Assembly: GCA_964016885.1 (NCBI GenBank)
Contig: OZ024743.1
Coordinates: 5,952,001 to 6,016,000 of the forward strand
Length of the DNA: 64,000 nucleotides
Direction: 5' to 3'
Source: Eledone cirrhosa
Lineage: Eukaryota
Below are positions 1-58,679 of the stretch, one piece after another; the stretch's first letter is position 1; each line of letters starts with the position of its first letter. Both the position numbers and the translations under genes were made by a program. Under the pieces are notes generated by a model, which did no database searches, had not been told where the DNA came from, and saw only the letters and a list, made by a program, of their open reading frames with translations.

Positions 1-3000
1 TATCCCTCACCATATAAACTGTATCCCCCACCATATAAACTATATCCCCCACCATATAAACTGTATCCCCCACCATACAAACTATATCCCCCCACCATAC
101 TAACTGTATCCCCCACCATATAAACTGTATCCCCCACCATACTAACTGTATCCCCCCACCATACTAACTGTATCCCCCCACCATACTAACTGTATCCCCC
201 ACCATACTAACTGTATCCCCCACCATATAAACTGTATCCCCCACCATACAAACTATATCCCCCCACCATACTAACTGTATCCCCCACCATATAAACTGTA
301 TCCCCCACCATACTAACTGTATCCCCCACCATATAAACTGTATCCCCCACCATACAAACTATATCCCCCCACCATACTAACTGTATCCCCCACCATATAA
401 ACTGTATCCCCCACCATACTAACTGTATCCCCCCACCATACTAACTGTATCCCCCCACCATACTAACTGTATCCCCCCACCATACTAACTGTATCCCCCA
501 CCATACTAACTGTATCCCCCACCATATAAACTATATCCCCCACCATATAAACTGTATCCCCCACCATACAAACTATATCCCCCCACCATACTAACTGTAT
601 CCCCCACCATATAAACTGTATCCCCCACCATACAAACTATATCCCCCCACCATACTAAATGTATCCCCCACCATACTAACTGTATCCCCCACCATATAAA
701 CTGTATCCCCACCATATAAACTATATCCCCCCACCATACTAACTGTATCCCCCACCATACTAACTGTATCCCCCCACCATACTAACTGTATCCCCCACCA
801 TACTAACTGTATCCCCCACCATACTAACTGTATCCCCCACCATATAAACTGTATCCCCACCATATAAACTGTATCCCCCTCCATACTAACTGTATCCCCC
901 ACCATACTAACTGTATCCCCCACCATACTAACTGTATCCCCCACCATATAAACTGTATCCCCCACCATACTAACTGTATCCCCCACCATACTAACTGTAT
1001 CCCCCACCATACTAACTGTATCCCCCCACCATACTAACTGTATCCCCCACCATACTAACTGTATCCCCCACCATACTAACTGTATCCCCCACCATACTAA
1101 CTGTATCCCCCACCATACTAACTGTATCCCCCCACCATACAAACTATATCCACCCACCATACTAACTGTATCCCCCACTATACTAACTGTATCCCCCACC
1201 ATACAAACTGTATCCCCCACCATATAAACTGTATCCCCACCATATAAACTATATCCCCCCACCATACTAACTGTATCCCCCACCATACTAACTGTATCCC
1301 CAACCATACTAACTGTATCCCCCACCATATAAACTGTATCCCCACCATACTAACTGTATCCCCCACCATACTAACTGTATCCCCACCATATAAACTGTAT
1401 CCCCCACCATATAAACTGTATCCCCCACCATACTAACTGTATCCCCCACCATACTAACTGTATCCCCCACCATACTAACTGTATCCCCCACCAGACTAAC
1501 TGTATCCCCCACCATACTAACTGTATCCCCCACCATACTAACTGTATCCCTCACCATACTAACTGTATCCCCACCATATAAACTATATCCCCCACCATAT
1601 AAACTGTATCCCCCACCATATAAACTGTATCCCCCACCATACTAACTGTATCCCCCACCATACTAACTGTATCCCCCACCATATAAACTGTATCCCCCAC
1701 CATACTAACTGTATCCCCCACCATACTAACTGTATCCCCCACCATATAAACTGTATCCCCCACCATACTAACTGTATACCCCACCATATAAACTGTATCC
1801 CCCACCATACTAACTGTATCCCCCACCATACTAACTGTATCCCCCACCATATAAACTGTATCCCCCACCATATAAACTGTATCCCCCACCATACTAACTG
1901 TATCCCCCACCATACTAACTGTATCCCCCACCATATAAACTGTATCCCCCACCATACTAACTGTATCCCCCACCATACTAACTGTATCCCCCACCATATA
2001 AACTGTATCCCCCACCATACTAACTGTATACCCCACCATATAAACTGTATCCCCCACCATACTAACTGTATCCCCCACCATACTAACTGTATCCCCCACC
2101 ATATAAACTGTATCCCCCACCATATAAACTGTATCCCCCACCATACTAACTGTATCCCCCACCATACTAACTGTATCCCCCACCATATAAACTGTATCCC
2201 CCACCATACTAACTGTATCCCTCACCATACTAACTGTATCCCCCACCATATAAACTGTATCCCCCACCATACTAACTGTATCCACCACCATAAAAATTGT
2301 ATCCCCCACCATACTAACTGTATCTCCCACCATACTAACTGTATCCCCCACCATATAAACTGTATCCCCCACCATACTAACTGTATCCCCCACCATATGA
2401 ACTGTATCCCCAACCATACTAACTGTATCCCCCACCATATAAACTGTATCCCCCACCATACTAACTGTATCCCCCACCATACTAACTGTATCCCCCACCA
2501 TATAAACTGTATCCCCCACCATACTAACTGTATCCCCCACCATATAAACTGTATCCCCCACCATACAAACTATATCCCCCACCATATAAACTGTATCCCC
2601 ACCATATAAACTGTATCCCCCACCATACTAACTGTATCCCCCACCATATAAACTGTATCCCCCACCATATAAACTGTATCCCCCACCATATAAACTGTAT
2701 CCCCCACCATACTAACTGTATCCCCCACCATACTAACTGTATCCCCCACCATATAAACTGTATCCCCCACCATATAAACTGTATCCCCCACCATATAAAC
2801 TGTATCCCCCACCATACTAACTGTATCCCCCACCATACTAACTGTATCCCCCACCATACTAACTGTATCCCCCACCATATAAACTGTATCCCCCACCATA
2901 TAAACTGTATCCCCCACCATACTAACTGTATCCCCCACCATACTAACTGTATCCCCCACTATATAAACTGTATCCCCCACCATATAAACTGTATCCCCCA

Positions 3001-6000
3001 CCATACTAACTGTATCCCCCACCATACTAACTGTATCCCCCACCATATAAACTGTATCCCCCACCATATAAACGGTATCCCCCACCATACTAACTGTATC
3101 CCCCACCATACTAACTGTATCCCCCACCATATAAACTGTATCCCCCACCATATAAACTGTATCCCCCACCATATAAACTGTATCCCCCACCATACTAACT
3201 GTATCCCCCACCATACTAACTGTATCCCCCACCATATAAACTGTATCCCCCACCATATAAACTGTATCCCCACCATACTAACTGTATCCCCCACCATACT
3301 AACTGTATCCCCCACCATATAAACTGTATCCCCCACCATACTAACTGTATCCCCCACCATACTAACTGTATCCCCCACCATACTAACTGTATCCCCCACC
3401 ATACTAACTGTATCCCCCACCATATAAACTGTATCCCCCACCATACAAACTATATCCCCCCACCATACTAACTGTATCCCCCACCATATAAACTGTATCC
3501 CCCACCATACTAACTGTATCCCCCCACCATACTAACTGTATCCCCCCACCATACTAACTGTATCCCCCCACCATACTAACTGTATCCCCCACCATACTAA
3601 CTGTATCCCCCACCATATAAACTATATCCCCCACCATATAAACTGTATCCCCCACCATACAAACTATATCCCCCCACCATACTAACTGTATCCCCCACCA
3701 TATAAACTGTATCCCCCACCATACTAACTGTATCCCCCCACCATACTAACTGTATCCCCCACCATATAAACTGTATCCCCCACCATACAAACTATATCCC
3801 CCCACCATACTAAATGTATCCCCCACCATACTAACTGTATCCCCCACCATATAAACTGTATCCCCACCATATAAACTATATCCCCCCACCATACTAACTG
3901 TATCCCCCACCATACTAACTGTATCCCCCCACCATACTAACTGTATCCCCCACCATACTAACTGTATCCCCCACCATACTAACTGTATCCCCCACCATAT
4001 AAACTGTATCCCCACCATATAAACTGTATCCCCCTCCATACTAACTGTATCCCCCACCATACTAACTGTATCCCCCACCATACTAACTGTATCCCCCACC
4101 ATACTAACTGTATCCCCCCACCATACTAACTGTATCCCCCACCATACTAACTGTATCCCCCACCATACTAACTGTATCCCCCACCATACTAACTGTATCC
4201 CCCACCATACTAACTGTATCCCCCCACCATACAAACTATATCCCCCCACCATACTAACTGTATCCACCACCATACTAACTGTATCCCCCACCATACAAAC
4301 TGTATCCCCCACCATATAAACTGTATCCCCACCATATAAACTATATCCCCCCACCATACTAACTGTATCCCCCACCATACTAACTGTATCCCCCACCATA
4401 CTAACTGTATCCCCCACCATATAAACTGTATCCCCACCATACTAACTGTATCCCCCACCATACTAACTGTATCCCCACCATATAAACTGTATCCCCCACC
4501 ATATAAACTGTATCCCCCACCATACTAACTGTATCCCCCACCATACTAACTGTATCCCCCACCATACTAACTGTATCCCCCACCAGACTAACTGTATCCC
4601 CCACCATACTAACTGTATCCCTCACCATACTAACTGTATCCCCACCATATAAACTATATCCCCCACCATATAAACTGTATCCCCCACCATATAAACTGTA
4701 TCCCCCACCATACTAACTGTATCCCCCACCATACTAACTGTATCCCCCACCATATAAACTGTATCCCCCACCATACTAACTGTATCCCCCACCATATAAA
4801 CTGTATCCCCCACCATACTAACTGTATCCCCCACCATATAAACTGTATCTCCCACCATACTAACTGTATCCCCCACCATACTAACTGTATCCCCCACCAT
4901 ATAAACTGTATCCCCCACCATACTAACTGTATCCCCCACCATACTAACTGTATCCGCCACCATACTAACTGTATCCCCCACCATACTAACTGTATCCCCC
5001 ACCATATAAACTGTATCCCCCACCATACTAACTGTATCCCCCACCATACTAACTGTATCCCCCACCATATAAACTGTATCCCCCACCATACTAACTGTAT
5101 ACCCCACCATATAAACTGTATCCCCCACCATACTAACTGTATCCCCCACCATACTAACTGTATCCCCCACCATATAAACTGTATCCCCCACCATATAAAC
5201 TGTATCCCCCACCATACTAACTGTATCCCCCACCATACTAACTGTATCCCCCACCATATAAACTGTATCCCCCACCATACTAACTGTATCCCCCACCATA
5301 CTAACTGTATCCCTCACCATACTAACTGTATCCCCCACCATATAAACTGTATCCCCCACCATACTAACTGTATCCCCCACCATATAAACTGTATCCCCCA
5401 CCATACTAACTGTATCCCCCACCATATAAACTGTATCCCCCACCATACTAACTGTATCTCCCACCATACTAACTGTATCCCCCACCATATAAACTGTATC
5501 CCCCACCATACTAACTGTATCCCCCACCATATGAACTGTATCCCCCACCATACTAACTGTATCCCCCACCATATAAACTGTATCCCCCACCATACTAACT
5601 GTATCCCCCACCATACTAACTGTATCCCCCACCATATAAACTGTATCCCCCACCATACTAACTGTATCCCCCACCATATAAACTGTATCCCCCACCATAC
5701 AAACTATATCCCCCACCATATAAACTGTATCCCCACCATATAAACTGTATCCCCCACCATACTAACTGTATCCCCCACCATATAAACTGTATCCCCCACC
5801 ATATAAACTGTATCCCCCACCATACTAACTGTATCCCCCACCATACTAACTGTATCCCCCACCATATAAACTGTATCCCCCACCATATAAACTGTATCCC
5901 CCACCATATAAACTGTATCCCCCACCATACTAACTGTATCCCCCACCATACTAACTGTATCCCCCACCATACTAACTGTATCCCCCACCATATAAACTGT

Positions 6001-9000
6001 ATCCCCCACCATATAAACTGTATCCCCCACCATACTAACTGTATCCCCCACCATACTAACTGTATCCCCCACCATATAAACTGTATCCCCCACCATACTA
6101 ACTGTATCCCCCACCATACTAACTGTATCCCCCACCATATAAACTGTATCCCCCACCATACTAACTGTATCCCCCACCATACTAACTGTATCCCCCACCA
6201 TACTAACTGTATCCCTCACCATACTAACTGTATCCCCCACCATATAAACTGTATCCCCCACCATACTAACTGTATCCCCCACCATACTAACTGTATCCCC
6301 CACCATACTAACTGTATCCCCCACCATATAAACTGTATCCCCCACCATATAAACTGTATCCCCACCATACTAACTGTATCCCCCACCATACTAACTGTAT
6401 CCCCCACCATATAAACTGTATCCCCCACCATATAAACTGTATCCCCCACCATACTAACTGTATCCCCCACCATACTAACTGTATCCCCCACCATACTAAC
6501 TGTATCCCCCACCATATAAATTGTATCCCCCACCATATAAACTATATCCCTCACCATACTAACTGTATCCCCCACCATACTAACTGTATCCCCCACCATA
6601 CTAACTGTATCCCTCACCATACTAACTGTATCCCCCACCATATAAACTGTATCCCCCACCATACTAACTGTATCCCCCACCATATAAACTGTATCCCTCA
6701 CCATACTAACTGTATCCCCCACCATATAAACTGTATCCCCCACCATATAAACTGTATCCCCCACCATACTAACTGTATCCCCCACCATACTAACTGTATC
6801 CCCCACTATATAAACTGTATCCCCCACCATATAAACTGTATCCCCCACCATACTAACTGTATCCCCCACCATACTAACTGTATCCCCCACCATATAAACT
6901 GTATCCCCCACCATATAAACGGTATCCCCCACCATACTAACTGTATCCCCCACCATACTAACTGTATCCCCCACCATATAAACTGTATCCCCCACCATAT
7001 AAACTGTATCCCCCACCATATAAACTGTATCCCCCACCATACTAACTGTATCCCCCACCATACTAACTGTATCCCCCACCATATAAACTGTATCCCCCAC
7101 CATATAAACTGTATCCCCACCATACTAACTGTATCCCCCACCATACTAACTGTTTCCCCCACCATATAAACTGTATCCCCCACCATATAAACTGTATCCC
7201 CCACCATACTAACTGTATCCCCCACCATACTAACTGTATCCCCCACCATACTAACTGTATCCCCCACCATATAAATTGTATCCCCCACCATATAAACTAT
7301 ATCCCTCACCATACTAACTGTATCCCCCACCATACTAACTGTATCCCCCACCATACTAACTGTATCCCTCACCATACTAACTGTATCCCCCACCATATAA
7401 ACTGTATCCCCCACCATATAAACTGTATCCCCCACCATATAAACTGTATCCCCCACCATACTAACTGTATCCCCCACCATACTAACTGTATCCCCCACCA
7501 TACTAACTGTATCCCCCACCATACTAACTGTATCCCCCACCATATAAACTGTATCCCCCACCATATAAACTGTATCCCCCACCATACTAACTGTATCCCC
7601 CACCATATAAACTGTATCCCCCACCATACTAACTGTATCCCCCACCATACTAACTGTATCCCCCACCATATAAACTGTATCCCCCACCATATAAACGGTA
7701 TCCCCCACCATACTAACTGTATCCCCCACCATACTAACTGTATCCCCCACCATATAAACTGTATCCCCCACCATATAAACTGTATCCCTCACCATACTAA
7801 CTGTATCCCCCACCATACTAACTGTATCCCTCACCATACTAACTGTATCCCCCACCATATAAACTGTATCCCCCACCATACTAACTGTATCCCCCACCAT
7901 ATAAACTGTATCCCCCACCATACTAACTGTATCCCTCACCATACTAACTGTATCCCCCACCATATAAACTGTATCCCCCACCATACTAACTGTATCCCCC
8001 ACCATATAAACTGTATCCCCCACCATACTAACTGTATCCCCCACCATATAAACTGTATCCCTCACCATACTAACTGTATCCCCCACCATACTAACTGTAT
8101 CCCCCACCATACTAACTGTATCCCTCACCATACTAACTGTATCCCCCACCATACTAACTGTATCCCCCACCATACTAACTGTATCCCCCACCATATAAAC
8201 TGTATCCCCCACCATACTAACTGTATCCCTCACCATACTAACTGTATCCCCCACCATATAAACTGTATCCCCCACCATACAAACTATATCCCCCACCATA
8301 TAAACTGTATCCCCCACCATATAAACTGTATCCCCCACCATACTAACTGTATCCCCCACCATATAAACTGTATCCCCCACCATACTAACTGTATCCCCCA
8401 CCATATAAACTGTATCCCTCACCATACTAACTGTATCCCCCACCATACTAACTGTATCCCCCACCATACTAACTGTATCCCCCACCATATAAACTGTATC
8501 CCCCACCATATAAACTGTATCCCCCACCATACTAACTGTATCCCCCACCATATAAACTGTATCCCTCACCATACTAACTGTATCCCCCACCATATAAACT
8601 GTATCCCCCACCATACAAACTATATCCCCCACCATATAAACTGTATCCCCCACCATATAAACTGTATCCCCCACCATATAAACTGTATCCCCCACCATAT
8701 AAACTGTATCCCCCACCATACTAACTGTATCCCCCACCATACTAACTGTATCCCCCACCATATAAACTGTATCCCCCACCATACTAAATGTATCCCCCAC
8801 CATACTAACTGTATCCCCCACCATATAAACTGTATCCTCCACCATATAAACTGTATCCCCCACCATACTAACTGTATCCCCCACCATACTAACTGTATCC
8901 CCCACCATACTAACTGTATCCCCCACCATACTAACTGTATCCCCCACCATACTAACTGTATCCCCACCATATAAACTATATCCCCCCACCATACTAACTG

Positions 9001-12000
9001 TATCCCCCACCATACTAACTGTATCCCCCACCATACTAACTGTATCCCCCACCATACAAACTATATCCCCCACCATACTAACTGTATCCCCCACCATATA
9101 AACTGTATCCCCCACCATACTAACTGTATCCCCCACCATATAAACTGTATCCCCACCATATAATCTGTATCCCCCACCATACTAACTGTATCCCCCCACC
9201 ATACTAACTGTATCCCCCACCATACAAACTATATCCCCCCACCATACTAACTGTATCCCCCACCATACTAACTGTATCCCCCACCATATAAACTGTATCC
9301 CCCATCATACAAACTATATCCCCCCCACCATACTAACTGTATCCCCCACCATACTAACTGTATCCCCCACCATATAAACTATATCCCCCCACCATACTAA
9401 CTGTATCCCCCACCATACTAACTGTATCCCCCACCATACTAACTGTATCCCCCACCATACTAACTGTATCCCCCACCATATAAACTATATCCCCCCACCA
9501 TACTAACTGTATCCCCCACCATACTAACTGTATCCCCCACCATACTAACTGTATCCCCCACCATACAAACTATATCCCCCCACCATACTAACTGTATCCC
9601 CCACCATATAAACTGTATCCCCCACCATACTAACTGTATCCCCCACCATATAAACTGTATCCCCACCATATAAACTGTATCCCCCACCATACTAACTGTA
9701 TCCCCCACCATACTAACTGTATCCCCCACCAGACTAACTGTATCCCCCACCATACTAACTGTATCCCCCACCATACTAACTGTATCCCTCACCATACTAA
9801 CTGTATCCCCACCATATAAACTATATCCCCCACCATATAAACTGTATCCCCCACCATATAAACTGTATCCCCCACCATATTAACTGTATCCCCCACCATA
9901 CTAACTGTATCCCCCACCATATAAACTGTATCCCCCACCATACTAACTGTATCCCCCACCATATAAACTGTATCCCCCACCATACTAACTGTATCCCCCA
10001 CCATATAAACTGTATCTCCCACCATACTAACTGTATCCCCCACCATACTAACTGTATCCCCCACCATATAAACTGTATCCCCCACCATACTAACTGTATC
10101 CCCCACCATACTAACTGTATCCCCCACCATACTAACTGTATCCCCCACCATACTAACTGTATCCCCCACCATATAAACTGTATCCCCCACCATACTAACT
10201 GTATCCCCCACCATACTAACTGTATCCCCCACCATATAAACTGTATCCCCCACCATACTAACTGTATACCCCACCATATAAACTGTATCCCCCACCATAC
10301 TAACTGTATCCCCCACCATACTAACTGTATCCCCCACCATATAAACTGTATCCCCCACCATACTAACTGTATCCCCCACCATACTAACTGTATCCCCCAC
10401 CATATAAACTGTATCCCCCACCATACTAACTGTATCCCCCACCATACTAACTGTATCCCCCACCATACTAACTGTATCCCTCACCATACTAACTGTATCC
10501 CCCACCATATAAACTGTATCCCCCACCATACTAACTGTATCCCCCACCATACTAACTGTATCCCCCACCATACTAACTGTATCCCCCACCATATAAACTG
10601 TATCCCCCACCATGTAAACTGTATCCCCACCATACTAACTGTATCCCCCACCATACTAACTGTATCCCCCACCATATAAACTGTATCCCCCACCATATAA
10701 ACTGTATCCCCCACCATACTAACTGTATCCCCCACCATACTAACTGTATCCCCCACCATACTAACTGTATCCCCCACCATATAAATTGTATCCCCCACCA
10801 TATAAACTATATCCCTCACCATACTAACTGTATCCCCCACCATACTAACTGTATCCCCCACCATACTAACTGTATCCCTCACCATACTAACTGTATCCCC
10901 CACCATATAAACTGTATCCCCCACCATACTAACTGTATCCCCCACCATATAAACTGTATCCCTCACCATACTAACTGTATCCCCCACCATATAAACTGTA
11001 TCCCCCACCATATAAACTGTATCCCCCACCATACTAACTGTATCCCCCACCATACTAACTGTATCCCCCACTATATAAACTGTATCCCCCACCATATAAA
11101 CTGTATCCCCCACCATACTAACTGTATCCCCCACCATACTAACTGTATCCCCCACCATATAAACTGTATCCCCCAACATATAAACGGTATCCCCCACCAT
11201 ACTAACTGTATCCCCCACCATACTAACTGTATTCCCCACCATATAAACTGTATCCCCCACCATATAAACTGTATCCCCCACCATATAAACTGTATCCCCC
11301 ACCATACTAACTGTATCCCCCACCATACTAACTGTATCCCCCACCATATAAACTGTATCCCCCACCATATAAACTGTATCCCCACCATACTAACTGTATC
11401 CCCCACCATACTAACTGTATCCCCCACCATATAAACTGTATCCCCCACCATATAAACTGTATCCCCCACCATACTAACTATATCCCCCACCATACTAACT
11501 GTATCCCCCACCATACTAACTGTATCCCCCACCATATAAACTGTATCCCCCACCATACAAACTATATCCCCCCACCATACTAACTGTATCCCCCACCATA
11601 TAAACTGTATCCCCCACCATACTAACTGTATCCCCCCACCATACTAACTGTATCCCCCCACCATACTAACTGTATCCCCCCACCATACTAACTGTATCCC
11701 CCACCATACTAACTGTATCCCCCACCATATAAACTATATCCCCCACCATATAAACTGTATCCCCCACCATACAAACTATATCCCCCCACCATACTAACTG
11801 TATCCCCCACCATATAAACTGTATCCCCCACCATACTAACTGTATCCCCCCACCATACTAACTGTATCCCCCACCATATAAACTGTATCCCCCACCATAC
11901 AAACTATATCCCCCCACCATACTAAATGTATCCCCCACCATACTAACTGTATCCCCCACCATATAAACTGTATCCCCACCATATAAACTATATCCCCCCA

Positions 12001-15000
12001 CCATACTAACTGTATCCCCCACCATACTAACTGTATCCCCCCACCATACTAACTGTATCCCCCACCATACTAACTGTATCCCCCACCATACTAACTGTAT
12101 CCCCCACCATATAAACTGTATCCCCACCATATAAACTGTATCCCCCTCCATACTAACTGTATCCCCCACCATACTAACTGTATCCCCCACCATACTAACT
12201 GTATCCCCCACCATACTAACTGTATCCCCCCACCATACTAACTGTATCCCCCACCATACTAACTGTATCCCCCACCATACTAACTGTATCCCCCACCATA
12301 CTAACTGTATCCCCCACCATACTAACTGTATCCCCCCACCATACAAACTATATCCCCCCACCATACTAACTGTATCCCCCACCATACTAACTGTATCCCC
12401 CACCATACAAACTGTATCCCCCACCATATAAACTGTATCCCCACCATATAAACTATATCCCCCCACCATACTAACTGTATCCCCCACCATACTAACTGTA
12501 TCCCCCACCATACTAACTGTATCCCCCACCATATAAACTGTATCCCCACCATACTAACTGTATCCCCCACCATACTAACTGTATCCCCACCATATAAACT
12601 GTATCCCCCACCATATAAACTGTATCCCCCACCATACTAACTGTATCCCCCACCATACTAACTGTATCCCCCACCATACTAACTGTATCCCCCACCAGAC
12701 TAACTGTATCCCCCACCATACTAACTGTATCCCTCACCATACTAACTGTATCCCCACCATATAAACTATATCCCCCACCATATAAACTGTATCCCCCACC
12801 ATATAAACTGTATCCCCCACCATACTAACTGTATCCCCCACCATACTAACTGTATCCCCCACCATATAAACTGTATCCCCCACCATACTAACTGTATCCC
12901 CCACCATATAAACTGTATCCCCCACCATACTAACTGTATCCCCCACCATATAAACTGTATCTCCCACCATACTAACTGTATCCCCCACCATACTAACTGT
13001 ATCCCCCACCATATAAACTGTATCCCCCACCATACTAACTGTATCCCCCACCATACTAACTGTATCCGCCACCATACTAACTGTATCCCCCACCATACTA
13101 ACTGTATCCCCCACCATATAAACTGTATCCCCCACCATACTAACTGTATCCCCCACCATACTAACTGTATCCCCCACCATATAAACTGTATCCCCCACCA
13201 TACTAACTGTATACCCCACCATATAAACTGTATCCCCCACCATACTAACTGTATCCCCCACCATACTAACTGTATCCCCCACCATATAAACTGTATCCCC
13301 CACCATATAAACTGTATCCCCCACCATACTAACTGTATCCCCCACCATACTAACTGTATCCCCCACCATATAAACTGTATCCCCCACCATACTAACTGTA
13401 TCCCCCACCATACTAACTGTATCCCTCACCATACTAACTGTATCCCCCACCATATAAACTGTATCCCCCACCATACTAACTGTATCCCCCACCATATAAA
13501 CTGTATCCCCCACCATACTAACTGTATCCCCCACCATATAAACTGTATCCCCCACCATACTAACTGTATCTCCCACCATACTAACTGTATCCCCCACCAT
13601 ATAAACTGTATCCCCCACCATACTAACTGTATCCCCCACCATATGAACTGTATCCCCCACCATACTAACTGTATCCCCCACCATATAAACTGTATCCCCC
13701 ACCATACTAACTGTATCCCCCACCATACTAACTGTATCCCCCACCATATAAACTGTATCCCCCACCATACTAACTGTATCCCCCACCATATAAACTGTAT
13801 CCCCCACCATACAAACTATATCCCCCACCATATAAACTGTATCCCCACCATATAAACTGTATCCCCCACCATACTAACTGTATCCCCCACCATATAAACT
13901 GTATCCCCCACCATATAAACTGTATCCCCCACCATACTAACTGTATCCCCCACCATACTAACTGTATCCCCCACCATATAAACTGTATCCCCCACCATAT
14001 AAACTGTATCCCCCACCATATAAACTGTATCCCCCACCATACTAACTGTATCCCCCACCATACTAACTGTATCCCCCACCATACAAACTGTATCCCCCAC
14101 CATATAAACTGTATCCCCCACCATATAAACTGTATCCCCCACCATACTAACTGTATCCCCCACCATACTAACTGTATCCCCCACCATATAAACTGTATCC
14201 CCCACCATACTAACTGTATCCCCCACCATACTAACTGTATCCCCCACCATATAAACTGTATCCCCCACCATACTAACTGTATCCCCCACCATACTAACTG
14301 TATCCCCCACCATACTAACTGTATCCCTCACCATACTAACTGTATCCCCCACCATATAAACTGTATCCCCCACCATACTAACTGTATCCCCCACCATACT
14401 AACTGTATCCCCCACCATACTAACTGTATCCCCCACCATATAAACTGTATCCCCCACCATATAAACTGTATCCCCACCATACTAACTGTATCCCCCACCA
14501 TACTAACTGTATCCCCCACCATATAAACTGTATCCCCCACCATATAAACTGTATCCCCCACCATACTAACTGTATCCCCCACCATACTAACTGTATCCCC
14601 CACCATACTAACTGTATCCCCCACCATATAAATTGTATCCCCCACCATATAAACTATATCCCTCACCATACTAACTGTATCCCCCACCATACTAACTGTA
14701 TCCCCCACCATACTAACTGTATCCCTCACCATACTAACTGTATCCCCCACCATATAAACTGTATCCCCCACCATACTAACTGTATCCCCCACCATATAAA
14801 CTGTATCCCTCACCATACTAACTGTATCCCCCACCATATAAACTGTATCCCCCACCATATAAACTGTATCCCCCACCATACTAACTGTATCCCCCACCAT
14901 ACTAACTGTATCCCCCACTATATAAACTGTATCCCCCACCATATAAACTGTATCCCCCACCATACTAACTGTATCCCCCACCATACTAACTGTATCCCCC

Positions 15001-36000: not shown

Positions 36001-39000
36001 CACCATATAAACTGTATCCCCCACCATATAAACTGTATCCCCCACCATACTAACTGTATCCCCCACCATATAAACTGTATCCCCCACCATACTAACTGTA
36101 TCCCCCACCATACTAACTGTATCCCCCACCATATAAACTGTATCCCCCACCATACTAACTGTATCCCCCACCATACTAACTGTATCCCCCACCATATAAA
36201 CTGTATCCCCCACCATACTAACTGTATCCCCCACCATACTAACTGTATCCCCCACCATATAAACTGTATCCCCCACCATACTAACTGTATCCCCCACCAT
36301 ATAAACTATATCCCCCACCATATAAACTGTATCCCCCACCATATAAACTGTATCCCCCACCATATAAACTGTATCCCCCACCATACTAACTGTATCCCCC
36401 ACCATACTAACTGTATCCCCCACCATATAAACTGTATCCCTCACCATACAAACTGTATCCCCCACCATACAAACTGTATCCCCCACCATACTAACTGTAT
36501 CCCCCACCATATAAACTGTATCCCCCACCATACAAACTATATCCCCCACCATACTAACTGTATCCCCCACCATATAAACTGTATCCCCCACCATATAAAC
36601 TGTATCCCCCACCATATAAACTGTATCCCCCACCATACTAACTGTATCCCCCACCATACTAACTGTATCCCCCACCATATAAACTGTATCCCCCACCATA
36701 TAAACTGTATCCCCCACCATACTAACTGTATCCCCCACCATACTAACTGTATCCCCCACCATACTAACTGTATCCCCCACCATATAAACTGTATCCCCCA
36801 CCATACTAACTGTATCCCCCACCATACAAACTATATCCCCCACCATACTAACTGTATCCCCCACCATACTAACTGTATCCCCCACCATACTAACTGTATC
36901 CCCCACCATATAAACTGTATCCCCCACCATATAAACTGTATCCCCCACCATACTAACTGTATCCCCCACCATACTAACTGTATCCCCCACCATATAAACT
37001 GTATCCCCCACCATACAAACTGTATCCCCCACCATACTAACTGTATCCCCCACCATATAAACTGTATCCCCCACCATATACACTGTATCCCCCACCATAT
37101 AAACTGTATCCCCCACCATACTAACTGTATCCCCCACCATATAAACTGTATCCCCCACCATACAAACCGTATCCCCCACCATATAAACTGTATCCCCACC
37201 ATATAAACTGTATCCCCCACCATACTATCTGTATCCCCCACCATACTAACTGTATCCCCCACCATATAAACTGTATCCCCCACCATACAAACTGTATCCC
37301 CCACCATATAAACTGTATCCCCACCATATAAACTGTATCCCCCACCATATAAACTGTATCCCCACCATATAAACTGTATCCCCCACCATATAAACTGTAT
37401 CCCCCACCATACTAACTGTATCCCCCACCATACAAGCTGTATCCCCCACCATATAAACTGTATCCCCCACCATATAAACTGTATCCCCCACCATATAAAC
37501 TGTATCCCCCACCATATAAACTGTATCCCCCACCATATAAACTGTATCCCCCACCATATAAACTGTATCCCCCACCATACTACCTGTATCCCCCACCATA
37601 TAAACTGTATCCCCCACCATATAAACTGTATCCCCCACCATACTAACTGTATCCCCCACCATATAAACTGTATCCCCCACCATACAAACTGTATCCCCCA
37701 CCATACTAACTGTATCCCCCACCATATAAACTGTATCCCCCACCATATAAACTGTATCCCCCACCATACAAACTGTATCCCCCACCATACTAACTGTATC
37801 CCCCACCATATAAACTATATCCCCCACCATATAAACTGTATCCCCCACCATATAAACTGTATCCCCCACCATACAAACTGTATCCCCCACCATACTACCT
37901 GTATCCCCCACCATATAAACTGTATCCCCCACCATATAAACTGTATCCCCCACCATACTAACTGTATCCCCCACCATATAAACTGTATCCCCCACCATAC
38001 AAACTGTATCCCCCAACATACTAACTGTATACCCCACCATATAAACTGTATCCCCCACCATATAAACTGTATCCCCCACCATACAAACTGTATCCCCCAC
38101 CATACTAACTGTATCCCCCACCATATAAACTATATCCCCCACCATATAAACTGTATCCCCCACCATATAAACTGTATCCCCCACCATACAAACTGTATCC
38201 CCCACCATACTACTTGTATCCCCCACCATATAAACTGTATCCCCCACCATATAAACTGTATCCCCCACCATACTAACTGTATCCCCCACCATATAAACTG
38301 TATCCCCCACCATACTAACTGTATCCCCCACCATATAAACTGTATCCCCCACCATATAAACTGTATCCCCCACCATACAAACTGTATCCCCCACCATACT
38401 AACTGTATCCCCCACCATATAAACTGTATCCCCCACCATACTAACTGTATCCCCCACCATACTAACTGTATGCCCCACTATATAAACTGTATCCCCCACC
38501 ATATAAACTGTATCCCCCACCATACTAACTGTATCCCCCACCATACTAACTGTATCCCCCACCATACTAACTGTATCCCCCACCATATAAATTGTATCCC
38601 CCACCATACTAACTGTATCCCCCACCATATAAACTGTATCCCCCACCATATAAACTGTATCCCCCACCATACTAACTGTATCCCCCACCATACTAACTGT
38701 ATCCCCCACCATATAAACTGTATCCCCCACCATATAAACGGTATCCCCCACCATACTAACTGTATCCCCCACCATACTAACTGTATCCCCCACCATACTA
38801 ACTGTATCCCCCACCATATAAACTGTATCCCCCACCATATAAACTGTATCCCTCACCATACTAACTGTATCCCCCACCATACTAACTGTATCCCCCACCA
38901 TACTAACTGTATCCCTCACCATACTAACTGTATCCCCCACCATATAAACTGTATCCCCCACCATATAAACGGTATCCCCCACCATACTAACTGTATCCCC

Positions 39001-42000
39001 CACCATACTAACTGTATCCCCCACCATACTAACTGTATCCCCCACCATATAAACTGTATCCCCCACCATATAAACTGTATCCCTCACCATACTAACTGTA
39101 TCCCCCACCATACTAACTGTATCCCCCACCATACTAACTGTATCCCTCACCATACTAACTGTATCCCCCACCATATAAACTGTATCCCTCACCATACTAA
39201 CTGTATCCCCCACCATACTAACTGTATCCCCCACCATACTAACTGTATCCCCCACCATACTAACTGTATCCCCCACCATATAAACTGTATCCCCCACCAT
39301 ATAAACTGTATCCCCCACCATATAAACTGTATCCCCCACCATATAAACTGTATCCCCCACCATACTAACTGTATCCCTCACCATACTAACTGTATCCCCC
39401 ACCATATAAACTGTATCCCCCACCATACTAACTGTATCCCCCACCATATAAACTGTATCCCCCACCATATAAACTGTATCCCTCACCATACTAACTGTAT
39501 CCCCCACCATGCTAACTGTATCCCCCACCATACTAACTGTATCCCTCACCATACTAACTGTATCCCCCACCATACTAACTGTATCCCCCACCATACTAAC
39601 TGTATCCCCCACCATATAAACTGTATCCCCCACCATACTAACTGTATCCCTCACCATACTAACTGTATCCCCCACCATATAAACTGTATCCCCCACCACA
39701 CAAACTATATCCCCCACCATATAAACTGTATCCCCCACCATATAAACTGTATCCCCCACCATACTAACTGTATCCCCCACCATACTAACTGTATCCCCCA
39801 CCATATAAACTGTATCCCCCACCATATAAACTGTATCCCCCACCATACTAACTGTATCCCCCACCATATAAACTGTATCCCTCACCATACTAACTGTATC
39901 CCCCACCATATAAACTGTATCCCCCACCATATAAACTGTATCCCCCACCATACTAACTGTATCCCCCACCATATAAACTGTATCCCTCACCATACTAACT
40001 GTATCCCCCACCATATAAACTGTATCCCCTACCATATAAACTGTATCCCCCACCATACTAACTGTATCCCCCACCATATAAACTGTATCCCTCACCATAC
40101 TAACTGTATCCCCCACCATATAAACTGTATCCCCCACCATACAAACTATATCCCCCACCATACTAACTGTATCCCCCACCATACTAACTGTATCCCCCAC
40201 CATATAAACTGTATCCCTCACCATACTAACTGTATCCCCCACCATATAAACTGTATCCCCCACCATATAAACTGTATCCCTCACCATACTAACTGTATCC
40301 CCCACCATATAAACTGTATCCCCCACCATACAAACTATATCCCCCACCATACTAACTGTATCCCCCACCATACTAACAGTATCCCCCACCATATAAACTG
40401 TATCCCTCACCATACTAACTGTATCCCCCACCATATAAACTGTATCCCTCACCATACTAACTGTATCCCCCACCATATAAACTGTATCCCCCACCATATA
40501 AACTGTATCCCCCACCATACTAACTGTATCCCCCACCATACTAACTGTATCCCCCACCATACTAACTGTATCCCCCACCATATAAACTGTATGCCCCACC
40601 ATACAAACTATATCCCCCACCATACTAACTGTATCCCCCACCATACTAACTGTATCCCCCACCATATAAACTGTATCCCTCACCATACTAACTGTATCCC
40701 CCACCATATAAACTGTATCCCTCACCATACTAACTGTATCCCCCACCATATAAACTGTATCCCCCACCATATAAACTGTATCCCCCACCATACTAACTGT
40801 ATCCCCCACCATACTAACTGTATCCCCCACCATACTAGCTGTATCCCCCACCATATAAACTGTATCCCCCACCATATAAACTGTATCCCCCACCATACTA
40901 ACTGTATCCCCCACCATACTAACTGTATCCCCCACCATATAAACTGTATCCCCCACCATACAAACTGTATCCCCCACCATACTAACTGTATCCCCCACCA
41001 TATAAACTGTATCCCCCACCATACAAACTATATCCCCCACCATACTAACTGTTTCCCCCACCATATAAACTGTATCCCCCACCATATAAACTGTATCCCC
41101 CACCATATAAACTGTATCCCCCACCATACTAACTGTATCCCCCACCATACTAACTGTATCCCCCACCATATAAACTGTATCCCCCACCATATAAACTGTA
41201 TCCCCCACCATACTAACTGTATCCCCCACCATACTAACTGTATCCCCCACCATACTAACTGTATCCCCCACCATACAAACTGTATCCCCCACCATACTAA
41301 CTGTATCCCCCACCATACAAACTATATCCCCCACCATACTAACTGTATCCCCCACCATACTAACTGTATCCCCCACCATACTAACTGTATCCCCCACCAT
41401 ATAAACTGTATCCCCCACCATATAAACTGTATCCCCCACCATACTAACTGTATCCCCCACCATACTAACTGTATCCCCCACCATATAAACTGTATCCCCC
41501 ACCATACAAACTGTATCCCCCACCATACTAACTGTATCCCCCACCATATAAACTGTATCCCCCACCATATACACTGTATCCCCCACCATATAAACTGTAT
41601 CCCCCACCATACTAACTGTATCCCCCACCATATAAACTGTATCCCCCACCATACAAACCGTATCCCCCACCATATAAACTGTATCCCCACCATATAAACT
41701 GTATCCCCCACCATACTATCTGTATCCCCCACCATACTAACTGTATCCCCCACCATATAAACTGTATCCCCCACCATACAAACTGTATCCCCCACCATAT
41801 AAACTGTATCCCCACCATATAAACTGTATCCCCACCATATAAACTGTATCCCCACCATATAAACTGTATCCCCCACCATATAAACTGTATCCCCCACCAT
41901 ACTAACTGTATCCCCCACCATACTAACTGTATCCCCCACCATACTAACTGTATCCCCCACCATACAAGCTGTATCCCCCACCATATAAACTGTATCCCCC

Positions 42001-45000
42001 ACCATATAAACTGTATCCCCCACCATATAAACTGTATCCCCCACCATATAAACTGTATCCCCCACCATATAAACTGTATCCCCCACCATATAAACTGTAT
42101 CCCCCACCATATAAACTGTATCCCCCACCATATAAACTGTATCCCCCACCATACTAACTGTATCCCCCACCATATAAACTGTATCCCCCACCATACAAAC
42201 TGTATCCCCCACCATACTAACTGTATCCCCCACCATATAAACTGTATCCCCCACCATATAAACTGTATCCCCCACCATACAAACTGTATCCCCCACCATA
42301 CTAACTGTATCCCCCACCATATAAACTATATCCCCCACCATATAAACTGTATCCCCCACCATACAAACTGTATCCCCCACCATACTACCTGTATCCCCCA
42401 CCATATAAACTGTATCCCCCACCATATAAACTGTATCCCCCACCATACTAACTGTATCCCCCACCATATAAACTGTATCCCCCACCATACAAACTGTATC
42501 CCCCAACATACTAACTGTATACCCCACCATATAAACTGTATCCCCCACCATACAAACTGTATCCCCCACCATACTAACTGTATCCCCCACCATATAAACT
42601 ATATCCCCCACCATATAAACTGTATCCCCCACCATATAAACTGTATCCCCCACCATACAAACTGTATCCCCCACCATACTACTTGTATCCCCCACCATAT
42701 AAACTGTATCCCCCACCATACTAACTGTATCCCCCACCATATAAACTGTATCCCCCACCATACTAACTGTATCCCCCATCATATAAACTGTATCCCCCAC
42801 CATATAAACTGTATCCCCCACCATACAAACTGTATCCCCCACCATACTAACTGTATCCCCCACCATATAAACTGTATCCCCCACCATATAAACTGTATCC
42901 CCCACCATATAAACTGTATCCCCCACCATACTAACTGTATCCCCCACCATACTAACTGTATCCCCCACCATATAAACTGTATCCCCCACCATACTAACTG
43001 TATCCCCCACCATATAAACTGTATCCCCCACCATATAAACTGTATCCCCCACCATATAAACTGTATCCCCCACCATATAAACTGTATCCCCCACCATACT
43101 AACTGTATCCCCCACCATACTAACTGTATCCCCCACCATATAAACTGTATCCCCCACCATATAAACTGTATCCCCCACCATATAAACTGTATCCCCCACC
43201 ATACTAACTGTATCCCCCACCATACTAACTGTATCCCCCACCATATAAACTGTATCCCCCACCATACTAACTGTATCCCCCCACCATATAAACTGTATCC
43301 CCCACCATACTAACTGTATCCCCCACCATATAAACTGTATCCCCCACCATACTAACTGTATCCCCCACCATATAAACTGTATCCCCCACCATATAAACTG
43401 TATCCCCCACCATATAAACTGTATCCCCCACCATACTAACTGTATCCCCCACCATACTAACTGTATCCCCCACCATATAAACTGTATCCCCCACCATATA
43501 AACTGTATCCCCCACCATACAAACTGTATCCCCCACCATATAAACTGTATCCCCACCATATAAACTGTATCCCCCACCATATAAACTGTATCCCCCACCA
43601 TACTAACTGTATCCCCCACCATATAAACTGTATCCCCCACCATATAAACTGTATCCCCCACCATACAAACTGTATCCCCACCATATAAACTGTATCCCCC
43701 ACCATATAAACTGTATCCCCCACCATATAAACTGTATCCCCCACCATACTAACTGTATCCCCCACCATACTAACTGTATCCCCCACCATATAAACTGTAT
43801 CCCCCACCATACAAACTGTATCCCCCACCATACTAACTGTATCCCCCACCATATAAACTGTATCCCCCACCATATACACTGTATCCCCCACCATATAAAC
43901 TGTATCCCCCACCATACTAACTGTATCCCCCACCATATAAACTGTATCCCCCACCATACAAACCGTATCCCCCACCATATAAACTGTATCCCCACCATAT
44001 AAACTGTATCCCCCACCATACTATCTGTATCCCCCACCATACTAACTGTATCCCCCACCATATAAACTGTATCCCCCACCATATAAACTGTATCCCCCAC
44101 CATACAAACTGTATCCCCCACCATATAAACTGTATCACCACCATATAAACTGTATCCCCCACCATATAAACTGTATCCCCACCATATAAGCTGTATCCCC
44201 CACCATATAAACTGTATCCCCCACCATACTAACTGTATCCCCCACCATACTAACTGTATCCCCCACCATACAAGCTATATCCCCCACCATATAAACTGTA
44301 TCCCCCACCATATAAACTGTATCCCCCACCATATAAACTGTATCCCCCACCATATAAACTGTATCCCCCACCATATAAACTGTATCCCCCACCATACAAA
44401 CTGTATCCCCCACCATACTACCTGTATCCCCCACCATATAAACTGTATCCCCCACCATACTAACTGTATCCCCCACCATATAAACTGTATCCCCCACCAT
44501 ACAAACTGTATCCCCCAACATACTAACTGTATCCCCCACCATATAAACTGTATCCCCCACCATATAAACTGTATCCCCCACCATACAAACTGTATCCCCC
44601 ACCATACTAACTGTATCCCCCACCATATAAACTATATCCCCCACCATATAAACTGTATCCCCCACAATATAAACTGTATCCCCCACCATACAAACTGTAT
44701 CCCCCACCATACTACTTGTATCCCCCACCATATAAACTGTATCCCCCACCATATAAACTGTATCCCCCACCATATAAACTGTATCCCCCACCATACTAAC
44801 TGTTTCCCCCACCATATAAACTGTATCCCCCACCATACAAACTGTATCCCCCACCATACTAACTGTATCCCCCACCATATAAACTGTATTCCCCACCATA
44901 CAAACTGTATCCCCCACCATACTAACTGTATCCCCCACCATATAAACTGTATCCCCCACCATATAAACTGTATCCCCCACCATATAAACTGTATCCCCCA

Positions 45001-48000
45001 CCATACTAACTGTATCCCCCACCATACTAACTGTATCCCCCACCATATAAACTGTATCCCCCACCATACTAACTGTATCCCCCACCATATAAACTGTATC
45101 CCCCACCATATAAACTGTATCCCCCACCATATAAACTGTATCCCCCACCATACTAACTGTATCCCCCACCATATAAACTGTATCCCCCACCATATAAACT
45201 GTATCCCCCACCATACTAACTGTATCCCCCACCATACTAACTGTATCCCCCACCATATAAACTGTATCCCCCACCATACTAACTGTATCCCCCACCATAT
45301 AAACTGTATCCCCCACCATACTAACTGTATCCCCCACCATATAAACTGTATCCCCCACCATATAAACTGTATCCCCCACCATATAAACTGTATCCCCCAC
45401 CATACTAACTGTATGCCCCACCATATAAACTGTATCCCCCACCATATAAACTGTATCCCCCACCATATAAACTGTATCCCCCACCATATAAACTGTATCC
45501 CCCACCATATAAACTGTATCCCCCACCATACTAACTGTATCCCCCACCATACTAACTGTATCCCCCACCATATAAACTGTATCCCCCACCATACTAACTG
45601 TATCCCCCACCATACTAACTGTATCCCCCACCATATAAACTGTATCCCCCACCATATAAACTGTATCCCCCACCATACTAACTGTATCCCCCACCATATA
45701 AACTGTATCCCCCACCATACTAACTGTATCCCCCACCATACTAACTGTATCCCCCACCATATAAACTGTATCCCCCACCATATAAACTGTATCCCCCACC
45801 ATACTAACTGTATCCCCCACCATATAAACTGTATCCCCCACCATATAAACTGTATCCCCCACCATACTAACTGTATCCCCCACCATACTAACTGTATCCC
45901 CCACCATATAAACTGTATCCCCCACCATATAAACTGTATCCCCCACCATACTAACTGTATCCCGCACCATACTAACTGTATCCCCCACCATATAAACTAT
46001 ATCCCCCACCATACTAACTGTATCCCCCACCATACTAACTGTATCCCCCACCATATAAACTGTATCCCCCACCATATAAACTGTATCCCCCACCATACTA
46101 ACTGTATCCCCCACCATACTAACTGTATCCCCCACCATATAAACTATATCCCCCACCATATAAACTGTATCCCCCACCATACTAACTGTATCCCCCACCA
46201 TATAAACTGTATCCCCCACCATATAAACTGTATCCCCCACCATACTAACTGTATCCCCCACCATACTAACTGTATCCCCCACCATACTAACTGTATCCCC
46301 CACCATATAAACTGTATCCCCCACCATATAAACTGTATCCCCCACCATACTAACTGTATCCCCCACCATACTAACTGTATCCCCCACCATATAAACTGTA
46401 TCCCCCACCATATAAACTGTATCCCCCACCATACTAACTGTATCCCCCACCATACTAACTGTATCCCCCACCATATAAACTGTATCCCCCACCATACTAA
46501 CTGTATCCCCCACCATACTAACTGTATCCCCCACCATATAAATTGTATCCCCCACCATATAAACTGTATCCCCCACCATATAAACTGTATGCCCCACCAT
46601 ATAAACTGTATCCCCCACCATATAAACTGTATCCCCCACCATATAAACTGTATCCCCCACCATACTAACTGTATCCCCCACCATATAAACTGTATCCCCC
46701 ACCATATAAACTGTATCCCCCACCATATAAACTGTATACCCCACCATACTAACTGTATCCCCCACCATATAAACTGTATCCCCCACCATATAAACTGTAT
46801 CCCCCACCATACTAACTGTATCCCCCACCATATAAACTGTATCCCCCACCATATAAACTGTATCCCCCACCATACAAACTGTATCCCCCACCATATAAAC
46901 TGTATCCCCCACCATATAAACTGTATCCCCCACCATATAAACTGTATCCCCCACCATATAAACTGTATCCCCCACCATATAAACTGTATCCCCCACCATA
47001 TAAACTGTATCCCCCACCATACAAACTGTATCCCCCACCATACTAACTGTATCCCTCACCATACTAACTGTATCCCCCACCATATAAACTGTATCCCTCA
47101 CCATATAAACTGTATCCCCCACCATATAAACTGTATCCCCCACCATATAAACTGTATCCCCCACCATATAAACTGTATCCCCCACCATATAAACTGTATC
47201 CCCCACCATATAAACTGTATCCCCCACCATATAAACTGTATCCCCCACCATACAAACTGTATCCCCCACCATACTAACTGTATCCCCCACCATACTAACT
47301 GTATCCCCCACCATATAAACTGTATCCCCCACCATATAAACTGATCCCCCACCATACTAACTGTATCCCCCACCATATAAACTGTATCCCCCACCATATA
47401 AACTGTATCCCCCACCATATAAACTGTATCCCCCACCATACAAACTGTATCCCCCACCATACTAACTATCCCCCACCATATAAACTGTATCCCTCACCAT
47501 ATAAACTGTATCCCCCACCATACTAACTGTATCCCCCACCATATAAACTGTATCCCTCACCATATAAACTGTATCCCCCACCATATAAACTGTATCCCCC
47601 ACCATATAAACTGTATCCCCCACCATACTAACTGTATCCCTCACCATATAAACTGTATCCCCCACCATACAAACTGTATCCCCCACCATACTAACTGTAT
47701 CCCCCACCATATAAACTGTATCCCCCACCATATAAACTGTAACCGCCACCATATAAACTGTATCCCCCACCATACTAACTGTATCCCCCACCATATAAAC
47801 TGTATCCCCCACCATATAAACTGTATCCCCACCATATAAACTGTATCCCCCACCATATAAACTGTATCCCCCACCATATAAACTGTATCCCCCACCATAT
47901 AAACTGTATCCCCCACCATACTAACTGTATCCCCCACCATATAAACTGTATCCCCCACCATATAAACTGTATCCCCCACCATACTAACTGTATCCCCCAC

Positions 48001-49380
48001 CATATAAACTGTATCCCCCACCATATAAACTGTATCCCCCACCATATAAACTGTATCCCCCACCATATAAACTGTATCCCCCACCATACAAACTGTATCC
48101 CCCACCATACTAACTGTATCCCCCACCATACTAACTGTATCCCCCACCATATAAACTGTTTCCCCACCATACTAACTGTATCCTCCACCATACTAACTGT
48201 ATCCCCCACCATATAAACTGTATCCCCCACCATACTAACTGTATCCCCCACCATACTAACTGTATCCCCCACCATACTAACTGTATCCCCCACCATACTA
48301 ACTGTATCCCCCACCATATAAACTGTATCCCCCACCATACTAACTGTATCCCCCACCATACTAACTGTATCCCCCACCATATAAACTATATCCCCCACCA
48401 TATAAACTGTATCCCCCACCATATAAACTGTATCCCCCACCATACTAACTGTATCCCCCACCATATAAACTGTATCCCCACCATATAAACTATATCCCCC
48501 ACCATACTAACTGTATCCCCCACCATACTAACTGTATCCCCCACCATACTAACTGTATCCCCCACCATATAAACTATATCCCCCACCATATAAACTGTAT
48601 CCCCCACCATATAAACTGTATCCCCCACCATATAAACTGTTTTCCCACCATACTAACTGTATCCCCCACCATATAAACTGTTTCCCCACCATACTAACTG
48701 TATCCCCCACCATATAAACTGTATCCCCCACCATACTAACTGTATCCCCCACCATATAAACTGTATCCCCACCATATAAACTATATCCCCCACCATACTA
48801 ACTGTATCCCCCACCATATAAACTGTATCCCCCACCATATAAACTGTATCCCCCACCATATAAACTATATCCCCCACCATATAAACTGTATCCCCCACCA
48901 TATAAACTATATCCCCCACCATACTAACTGTATCCCCCACCATACTAACTGTATCCCCCACCATATAAACTGTATCCCCCACCATATAAACTATATCCCC
49001 CACCATATAAACTGTATCCCCCACCATATAAACTATATCCCCCACCATATAAACTGTATCCCCCACCATATAAACTGTATCCCCCACCATATAAACTATA
49101 TCCCCCACCATATAAACTGTATCCCCCACCATACTAACTGTATCCCCCACCATACTAACTGTATCCCCCACCATATAAACTGTATCCCCCACCATACAAA
49201 CTGTATCCCCCACCATATAAACTGTATCCCCCACCATACTAACTGTATCCCCCACCATATAACTGTATCCACCACCATACTAACTGTATCCCCCACCATA
49301 CAAACTGTATCCCCCACCATATAAATTGTATCCCCCACCATACAAACTGTATCCCCCACCATATAACTGTATCCACCACT
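1..49380. repeat. 21-bp tandem satellite, consensus CTGTATCCCCCACCATA(CT|TA)AA, >=49 kb, open at the left window edge
   Basis: Continuous head-to-tail units read directly; two major variants (..CATACTAA, ..CATATAAA), minor ..CATACAAA, C-run of 4-6; about 49380/21 = ~2,350 units; decays at 49260-49380. Confidence 0.99.
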
Positions 49381-49511
49381 GTACAAGCTGCACCCAATAC
49401 AGTTGCCCCCCCCCCCCCCCCACACTCATCATTTCCATTTTGTTTCATCAGCAAATATTGATGAAAGATATACGTTATGTTTAATAAACATTTTGAAAGC
49501 CCAGCTATGAA

Positions 49512-49631
49512 TTGGAAGGCTGATGGGCAGTACCGCCTTGTGGATTCCAGCAGAAGCAGTGGGGATAACTCAGTTATTCTCCGCTGCTTCTGCCGGAATC
49601 CACTAGATGGCACTACCTGTCAGCCTTTCAA
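49512..49631. repeat. Imperfect palindrome with ~60-bp arms (MITE-like/foldback), containing a CTCF-like motif
   Basis: Left arm TTGGAAGGCTGATGGGCAGTACCGCCTTGTGGATTCCAGCAGAAGCAGTGGGGATAACT aligns to the reverse complement of 49572-49631 with about 11 mismatches (mostly transitions) and 1 gap; centre at 49571. Confidence 0.9.
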
Positions 49632-49814
49632 AATGTTTATTTATTAAACATACCGTATATCTTTAGACATATGAAATTCACATACATATATGTATACAAC
49701 CAAGGGCCTTGTTTCAACGGGGTACCTGGTGACATTACCCCCCCCCCCCCCCCCACACACACACTTTTTCAGGAGCGGTGGACAAACCATCTTTTGTTTT
49801 TTTGTTTATTTGAT

Positions 49815-49917
49815 ATAATTGTTTCTACTTTTTTTGGCACAAGGCCAGCAAATTACCCAGTGTATTACTGGTACTTTATTTTATCGACCCCGTAAGGATG
49901 AAAGGCAAAGTGAACCT
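49815..49917 (-). mobile_element. SINE family A copy, 5'-truncated, 13-bp target-site duplication
   Basis: Shares ACTGGTACTTTATTTTATCGACCCCGTAAGGATGAAAGGCAAAG with other copies in the window; TATTTGATATAAT at 49807-49819 and 49917-49929. Confidence 0.85.
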
Positions 49918-50099
49918 ATTTGATATAATAAATCCTTTTAAGCTTATTTTTTTTTATATCTGAACTTCATTTGAATATATAAAATTTAATTAGCGTAAAA
50001 TTTTACTTATGTGATAGGGTCCAGGAAAGGCACCATAAACAATACTAACATGCTCCTTTAAGAATCAACAAAATGTTGGTTTATCCCCTTCACATTTTT

Positions 50100-50275
50100 A
50101 AAGCATATGAGGCCCATGTACACAACTATGCCGAAGATAAATTTTAGTCCTATTGACTTTGTCTAATACTTCTTACTCAGAGTTGATGTCTTATGGAACA
50201 CTCTCTGCTAATGCTTTTGAACTAACATGACTGTAAAGAAGTTCAAACAGAACATTAATTGCATCAAACTCATCT
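50100..50275 (+). mobile_element. Possible degraded LINE (CR1/jockey-like) 3' remnant
   Basis: Short translation YFLLRVDVLWNTL resembles the FFxxRVxxxWNxLP C-terminal motif of CR1-group ORF2; frameshifted and short. Confidence 0.3.
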
Positions 50276-50420
50276 GTTTAATAGGGCTTGCAAAGACCAT
50301 GAGTGTTTCTTCATCTCTTCTGAAGCAGATCTACAATGTATGATGTATATGTGGGTGAATATCAACTGTAAAATAACTTTTGAAAAAAAACCAGTTAAAT
50401 TAAATGTTTTCTATTTTCAG

Positions 50421-50626
50421 GGTACTTCTATTCATCAGACCCTTCTCAAATTTGGCGTGTTGCTGAGAACCTAGAGACAGGGATTGTTGGTGTTAATGAA
50501 AGTTTGTTATCTGCATCTGAATGTCCATTTGGTGGAGTTAAGCAATCAGGTTTAGGACGAGAAGGAGGGAAGTTTGGTATTGATGAGTTTTTAGAAATAA
50601 AATATGTGTGTATGGGAGGGCTTTAA
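50421..50626 (+). CDS. ALDH5A1: Terminal coding exon of succinate-semialdehyde dehydrogenase (SSADH, aldehyde dehydrogenase family 5)
   Basis: Acceptor TGTTTTCTATTTTCAG ends at 50420 (phase 1). Manual translation (G)[67 protein letters not shown] with TAA at 50624-50626; has the ALDH PFGGxKxSGxGREG motif and closely matches the animal SSADH C-terminus as recalled. Confidence 0.95.
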
Positions 50627-54951: not shown

Positions 54952-54976
54952 ATAGAGTTACGGTCCTTGCTCTTCT

Positions 54977-58669: not shown

Positions 58670-58679
58670 TGCAGTATTC

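Follow-up and report, generated by a model that had tools for sequence, protein, structure and literature searches.

A 90-kb Single-Locus Minisatellite Rich in TACTAAC in the Last Intron of an Octopod SSADH Gene

The SSADH Locus and Its Transcript

The stretch of DNA analysed here, 64,000 nucleotides of the octopod Eledone cirrhosa (contig OZ024743.1, positions 5,952,001 to 6,016,000, hereafter the window), carries the 3' end of a succinate-semialdehyde dehydrogenase (SSADH/ALDH5A1) gene preceded by a very long minisatellite. By tblastn over the window and the 200 kb upstream of it, 11 coding exons of SSADH/ALDH5A1 were placed in order on the + strand over 206 kb, the + strand being the sense strand of the gene. 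Intron 10, the last one, measures 92,402 bp and is filled nearly completely by an array of 21-bp units, around which exons 10 and 11 join in frame. The 3' part of this intron occupies positions 1..50420 (+) of the window, the donor being located 42 kb upstream of it. The array is followed by a unique intron end of 1 kb (49380..50420, +), containing 47 AG and a T-rich tract and closing with the acceptor AG (50419-50420), and by the last coding exon (50421..50626, +; 11/11 mapped), which encodes the Aldedh C-terminus and whose product finds its best database match, with 85% identity, in an Argonauta protein. The 3' UTR (50627..50930, +) ends with an AATAAA at 50925-50930. Two tandem arrays, in introns 7 and 10, account for 154.5 of the 206 kb of the gene (75%).

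One of the sequencing runs, X4, was treated as RNA from its behaviour only, no run being recorded as RNA. A single X4 contig of 2,083 nt covers positions 50420-50920, starting at the acceptor and stopping before the AATAAA at 50925; runs X1-X3 continue through the intron-exon boundary at exon 11. The one base of the X4 contig that matches in excess, a G, agrees with the final base of exon 10, and the 1,582 nt left unplaced agree with a leader together with the ~1.31 kb of coding exons located upstream. The contig is not among the filtered records shown for exons 9-10 and the 5' intron flank, where the exon-9 bin has a depth of 0.18. From this contig the SSADH gene appears to be expressed and spliced and, since the contig starts at the acceptor, the 21-bp array is likely transcribed and spliced out in the one sample concerned. 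The repeats do not form an exon of a noncoding RNA, the RNA-like contig stopping at the acceptor. In exon 10 (59 bp), three sites distinguish the DNA run X1 from the assembly (L006:7968, 7999 and 8005), one of these differences changing a residue, and the rest of its 1,286-base contig shows 0 differences.

Other elements occur in the window. An open frame of 896 codons (51351-54041, +) with an RVT_1 match and a weak PHD match belongs to a high-copy LINE-type element, which lies 400 bases downstream of the poly(A) signal of SSADH. A 138-codon helicase fragment below the Pfam cut-off (61794-62210, +) is one which we take to be Helitron-like. A short SINE-like repeat of very high copy number, found in both orientations at 49785-49920 and near 54670-54790, 54980-55090, 62880-62970 and 63830-63970, is also abundant in run X4. 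No Rfam match was obtained for positions 45000-64000.

Structure and Composition of the 21-bp Array

The tandem-repeat call on the window delineates the array at 1..49379 (+), with 2,350.5 copies and 92% matches. This segment represents the 3' 49.4 kb of an array that starts 40.4 kb upstream of the window and comprises 89,810 bp and 4,273 units (G000:C4:5911570-6001379), with a GC content of 45%. Its head-to-tail organization and its unit length, within the range of 10-100 bp, are those of a minisatellite or VNTR. All exact genome-wide matches of two unit patterns (1,685 of 1,685 and 3,093 of 3,093) fall inside the array, which is thus single-locus as judged by an exact-match search, a search that would miss diverged relatives. 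Runs of 65-162 units are found again in identical form at lags between 66 and 886 units; for lags of 265-886 units, such runs reach 162 units. The array is built by kb-scale block duplications. A fixed higher-order period was not found in it, the best lags giving an identity of 0.35 vs a base of 0.27.

TACTAAC, a consensus branch sequence, occurs 1,188 times on the + strand of the window and 0 times on the - strand, i.e., in ~51% of the units, and in 2,240 of the 4,273 units (52%) of the entire array. A preliminary description made from the letters of the window had estimated about half of the units and on the order of a thousand copies, and had rightly taken the strand of the motif for that of the intron RNA, + being the sense strand of intron 10. 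The cores of the units are interchangeable, the other forms in the window being TATAAAC (967) and TACAAAC (121). The TACTAAC share reaches 57% in mid-array vs 18% in the first 100 and 33% in the last 100 units. The single G of the unit stands in a TG context, and AG is limited to rare variants on the + strand, with 16 occurrences in the window array vs 3,688 on the - strand. The motif count assigns these 16 to 7 sequence contexts and includes among them all four positions named beforehand (1493-94, 4585-86, 9731-32 and 18858..18859, +, the last being an example of a rare AG variant). The entire array has 40 AG on its sense strand, corresponding to 0.45 AG/kb vs 50 AG/kb in the unique intron of the gene. 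CAG, which had been expected in nearly every unit of the opposite strand, indeed occurs there 2,159 times (~92% of the units of the window array). All these motif counts reflect one unit copied, not independent events. The sense strand of the array contains 0 GTRAG. As to recursive splicing within the array, scoring of its sense strand for YAG|GT ratchet sites returned 0 YAGGT, and this candidate was rejected.

The UAAC part of the array RNA is predicted by folding to be unpaired, and 957 of the 1,195 cores of the window possess a UAAY half-site within ~20 nt, the spacing of half-sites at which QKI binds. Two YCAY occur in each unit (8,473 in the entire array), so that other RNA-binding motifs fit equally well as the branch point. 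The - (template) strand of positions 1-49379 displays five consecutive G once per 21 bases; folding of one 210-nt stretch with the G-quadruplex option and RNA parameters predicted no G4 for this G-rich strand. R-loops are generally disfavoured for C-rich RNA, and would be so for the C-rich RNA of the array.

Selection on AG and on the Motif

The preliminary description suggested that the absence of AG would keep the motif sites from defining cryptic acceptors, and raised the question of whether AG-creating variants are depleted. Among 400,000 shuffles of the 21-bp unit, 70% are devoid of AG; TACTAAC occurs in 0.63% of the shuffles, and ~79% of these also lack AG. Since the unit contains a single G, most shuffles are without AG. 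Over the entire array, 8 of the 20 AG-creating substitution types are seen vs 12 of the 37 other substitutions to G (p=0.58), and 52 of the 108 remaining types, in a variant test whose power is low owing to the 20 possible AG-creating types and the few independent duplications. Moreover, for 19 of the 26 YAG of the entire array, a TACTAAC branch A lies at a distance of 18-40 nt on the 5' side; these acceptor-like sites are tolerated. Selection on AG is not supported, and the variant test gives no sign of depletion.

With respect to the motif itself, its columns carry 3.2 context-distinct rare variants each vs 3.5 for the non-motif columns, and the TACTAAC columns are neither fixed nor protected within the array, again at low power. 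The mid-array excess of TACTAAC could mean that the motif has been favoured in the younger part; given the few duplication events it can also be due to drift, or to drive. Three TACTAAC spaced by 16-33 nt are found 46,258 times genome-wide (28,277 forward, 17,981 reverse), ten times more often than the reversed-word control (4,436), whereas the branch-dead TACCAAC gives 127,814 such triples and its reversed word 28,852. In terms of these match counts, which are dominated by large arrays, TACTAAC lies inside the spread of the control words and shows no tandem enrichment over TACCAAC.

Orientation and Distribution of Other Intronic Arrays

The 84-kb intron 7 of SSADH harbors an unrelated array of 58-bp units, 64.7 kb long with 1,117 copies (G000:C4:5827279-5892017), which contains 8,732 AG on the sense strand (135 AG/kb) and 1,054 ACTAAY on the antisense strand; at its 3' end it grades into a 50-bp unit. 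A myosin-IX gene near a contig start (G000:C3:886096-1201001, - strand, 11 exon matches in order) possesses in its introns at least 12 unrelated minisatellites with units of 22-59 bp, up to ~80 kb in length. One of them, with 28-bp units and a length of ~10 kb, abounds in ACTAAC and lacks AG on the antisense strand, a mirror image of the array of SSADH intron 10. YTRAY and YAG occur together on the sense strand of three of the myosin-IX arrays.

Altogether, 22 intronic arrays were compared in five genes picked for their large gaps, 14 of them in exon-mapped genes and 8 between ordered Pfam hits, most being only partly covered and one being a near tie; the count leaves out (AT)n microsatellites as well as one 27-bp array that precedes the first coding exon of myosin-IX. 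The sense strand is the AG-poorer one in 8 arrays and the AG-richer one in 14 (p=0.29), and among the arrays in which many or most units contain ACTAAY, 1 is sense and 3 are antisense. Selection on orientation, which the preliminary description had envisaged, is not supported. A second array with exact TACTAAC extends over 32.6 kb at G000:C1:1530950-1563550; its 32-bp unit provides 726 copies of the motif on the - strand, which is AG-poor. A host gene was not found for this array among 60 of 151 candidate open stretches scanned, which gave retroelement domains only.

The contig that carries the 21-bp array measures 379 Mb, and the array belongs to its first 6 Mb. Between 0.5 and 10.5 Mb of this contig (C4), 0 of 20 samples of 5 kb fell within an array >1 kb, and arrays >1 kb cover 10.4 of 200 kb in the flanks of the SSADH region. 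At 0.2-3.5 Mb of C3, 4 of 10 samples hit a minisatellite >1 kb, and at 1.49-1.59 Mb of C1, tandem repeats occupy 83 of 100 kb. Among the myosin gaps sampled, those near contig ends (C3, C6) contain arrays of tens of kb, and those located in the interior (C2, C5, and C3 at 169 Mb) contain no arrays or small ones. The distribution of the arrays is patchy. The myosin-IX gene suggests that genes close to contig ends generally carry giant intronic arrays in this genome. A literature search, with poor coverage of subscription journals, found no paper on many giant unrelated arrays in octopod introns; a search of article texts found nothing relevant on a TACTAAC satellite in introns or on cephalopod intronic minisatellites.

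Comparison with Known Repeat Systems

Human VNTRs typically remain far below ~90 kb. In other respects, the SSADH array resembles the human intronic VNTRs or minisatellites, which are enriched at subtelomeres (PMC7608644), in its single locus, its unit >15 bp, its intronic position near a contig end and its interspersed variant units, but differs from them by a GC content of 45% instead of >60% (PMC7608644). As in the Drosophila Y-loop genes kl-3 and kl-5, the repeat RNA of which binds specific proteins and the expression of which requires dedicated RNA-binding proteins, repeats located in introns constitute most of the gene (PMC6508621, PMC11207136). In contrast to the megabase introns of simple satellites in the Y-loops, the SSADH introns of 92 and 84 kb consist of locus-specific units of 21 and 58 bp, in a metabolic gene. 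The array behaves as an unusually large intronic VNTR and is similar in kind to the Y-loop satellite introns.

Gomafu/MIAT contains 6-7 UACUAAC repeats in an exon, which bind SF1 and are common to mouse, human and chicken (PMC3116199). The SSADH array similarly presents tandem UACUAAC on the transcribed strand, SF1 binding being a property of Gomafu. Unlike this exon of a stable nuclear lncRNA, it lies in an intron of a protein-coding gene and offers 2,240 copies, in half of its units; being intronic, restricted to one locus and with a motif neither fixed nor protected within the array, it falls outside the Gomafu kind. Tandem UACUAAC binds both SF1 and QKI in vertebrate systems (PMC3116199, PMC13004596), and QKI recognises NACUAAY together with a neighbouring UAAY (PMC2697983). 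Since a STAR_dimer gene is present in the genome as well, binding of SF1/QKI to the array RNA is plausible by analogy. At the dual ACUAAC branch sites of RAI14 intron 10, QKI and SF1 compete, and dual sites bound by QKI do not serve as branch points (PMC13004596). The neighbouring ACUAAC cores of the array likewise resemble bipartite QKI sites, a possible way to keep the rare YAGs unused. The RAI14 sites are real branch points of an alternative exon, whereas those of SSADH lie 1-90 kb from the acceptor.

In myotonic dystrophy type 2, RNA from an intronic CCUG expansion sequesters proteins. Repeat RNAs also sequester proteins in HSat2/HSat3 bodies (PMC10505914), which, like Gomafu, offer a precedent for an RNA sponge. 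With thousands of sites per transcript, the SSADH array is like these RNAs at the sequence level, and foci are a plausible by-product.

Origin of the Array

The array, a single-locus minisatellite of 90 kb, has likely expanded neutrally, and its TACTAAC motifs and poverty in AG are likely passengers of the amplified unit, because unrelated arrays in the same and in other genes lie either way and are mostly AG-rich. This is the null explanation of the preliminary description, a chance 7-mer amplified with the monomer, and it fits best; a special role of the motif finds no support in four separate tests. The array would have grown by unequal exchange or slippage, would be transcribed as an intron, and would be removed when exons 10 and 11 are joined by normal splicing at the unique ends of the intron. 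The rare decoys combining a branch sequence and a YAG would remain unused because no strong donor (0 GTRAG) defines an exon, and may also be masked by Quaking-type proteins on the tandem ACUAAC. Proteins of the SF1/Quaking type probably bind the nascent array RNA, as a side effect rather than in a selected role. The neutral origin has to contend with the rarity of TACTAAC in the shuffled unit (0.63%), its higher share in mid-array (57% vs 18% and 33% at the ends) and the tenfold excess of its triples over the reversed control (46,258 vs 4,436).

A functionless array could also have been shaped by a survivorship filter, under which a sense array of strong branch points survives only without AG and donors, AG-rich versions being purged. 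The density of 0.45 AG/kb against 50 AG/kb, with 0 GTRAG, agrees with such a filter, as do the other three arrays with ACTAAY per unit, all antisense and with AG-rich sense strands; yet 79% of the TACTAAC-bearing shuffles are free of AG anyway, the array tolerates 19 YAG that have a TACTAAC at a suitable distance, variants creating AG show no depletion, and three myosin-IX arrays combine YTRAY and YAG on the sense strand. With a single case in its favour, we consider such a filter unlikely. It is decidedly unlikely that the intron RNA has been selected as a Gomafu-like sponge or scaffold, gathering SF1, Quaking and U2 at the locus in order to tune splicing in trans or to delay the output of SSADH mRNA. 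The motif is neither fixed nor protected, occurs at one locus, and shows no enrichment over TACCAAC; its host gene is a metabolic one and contains another giant array, with ACTAAY in the opposite orientation; an intron is, moreover, expected to be short-lived, unlike the exonic repeats of Gomafu. These points weigh against the 2,240 optimal sites per allele, the UAAY half-sites accompanying 957 of 1,195 window cores, the predicted unpaired UAAC, the STAR_dimer gene and the higher TACTAAC share in mid-array, and against the finding that six or seven Gomafu repeats bind SF1 and slow splicing in vitro (PMC3116199). Finally, the array might be real but inflated in length by the assembly, or represent one long allele of a very variable repeat. 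Long identical blocks are where assemblers err, and reads are not placeable on the repeat, but the 264 kb of the SSADH region contain no N, the blocks carry nested, partly diverged variant patterns, and similar arrays of 10-80 kb with other units exist elsewhere, which makes this a very improbable account.

Biological Implications

As a neutral passenger, the array means that 2,240 consensus branch sequences are apparently tolerated in an intron of 92 kb, as are the 8,732 sense AGs in the 84-kb intron 7. The two SSADH introns offer a natural experiment on the way in which decoys are ignored by exon definition. They also call for caution in the counting of satellite motifs, thousands of which amount to one event. 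Should the array RNA form foci with SF1/Quaking, it would represent a wild-type equivalent of Gomafu and of the RNAs of repeat expansions, with a few hundred times more sites. A bolder conjecture, in which we place little confidence, is that the nascent RNAs of the locus-specific intronic minisatellites of 10-90 kb in octopod genes act as natural repeat-expansion-like foci, the SSADH array, with 2,240 optimal SF1/Quaking sites and without usable splice sites, recruiting these proteins in amounts sufficient to alter Quaking-dependent splicing or the output of SSADH, involved in GABA breakdown, in proportion to allele length. The presence of many unrelated giant arrays in octopod introns may be the more useful lead.
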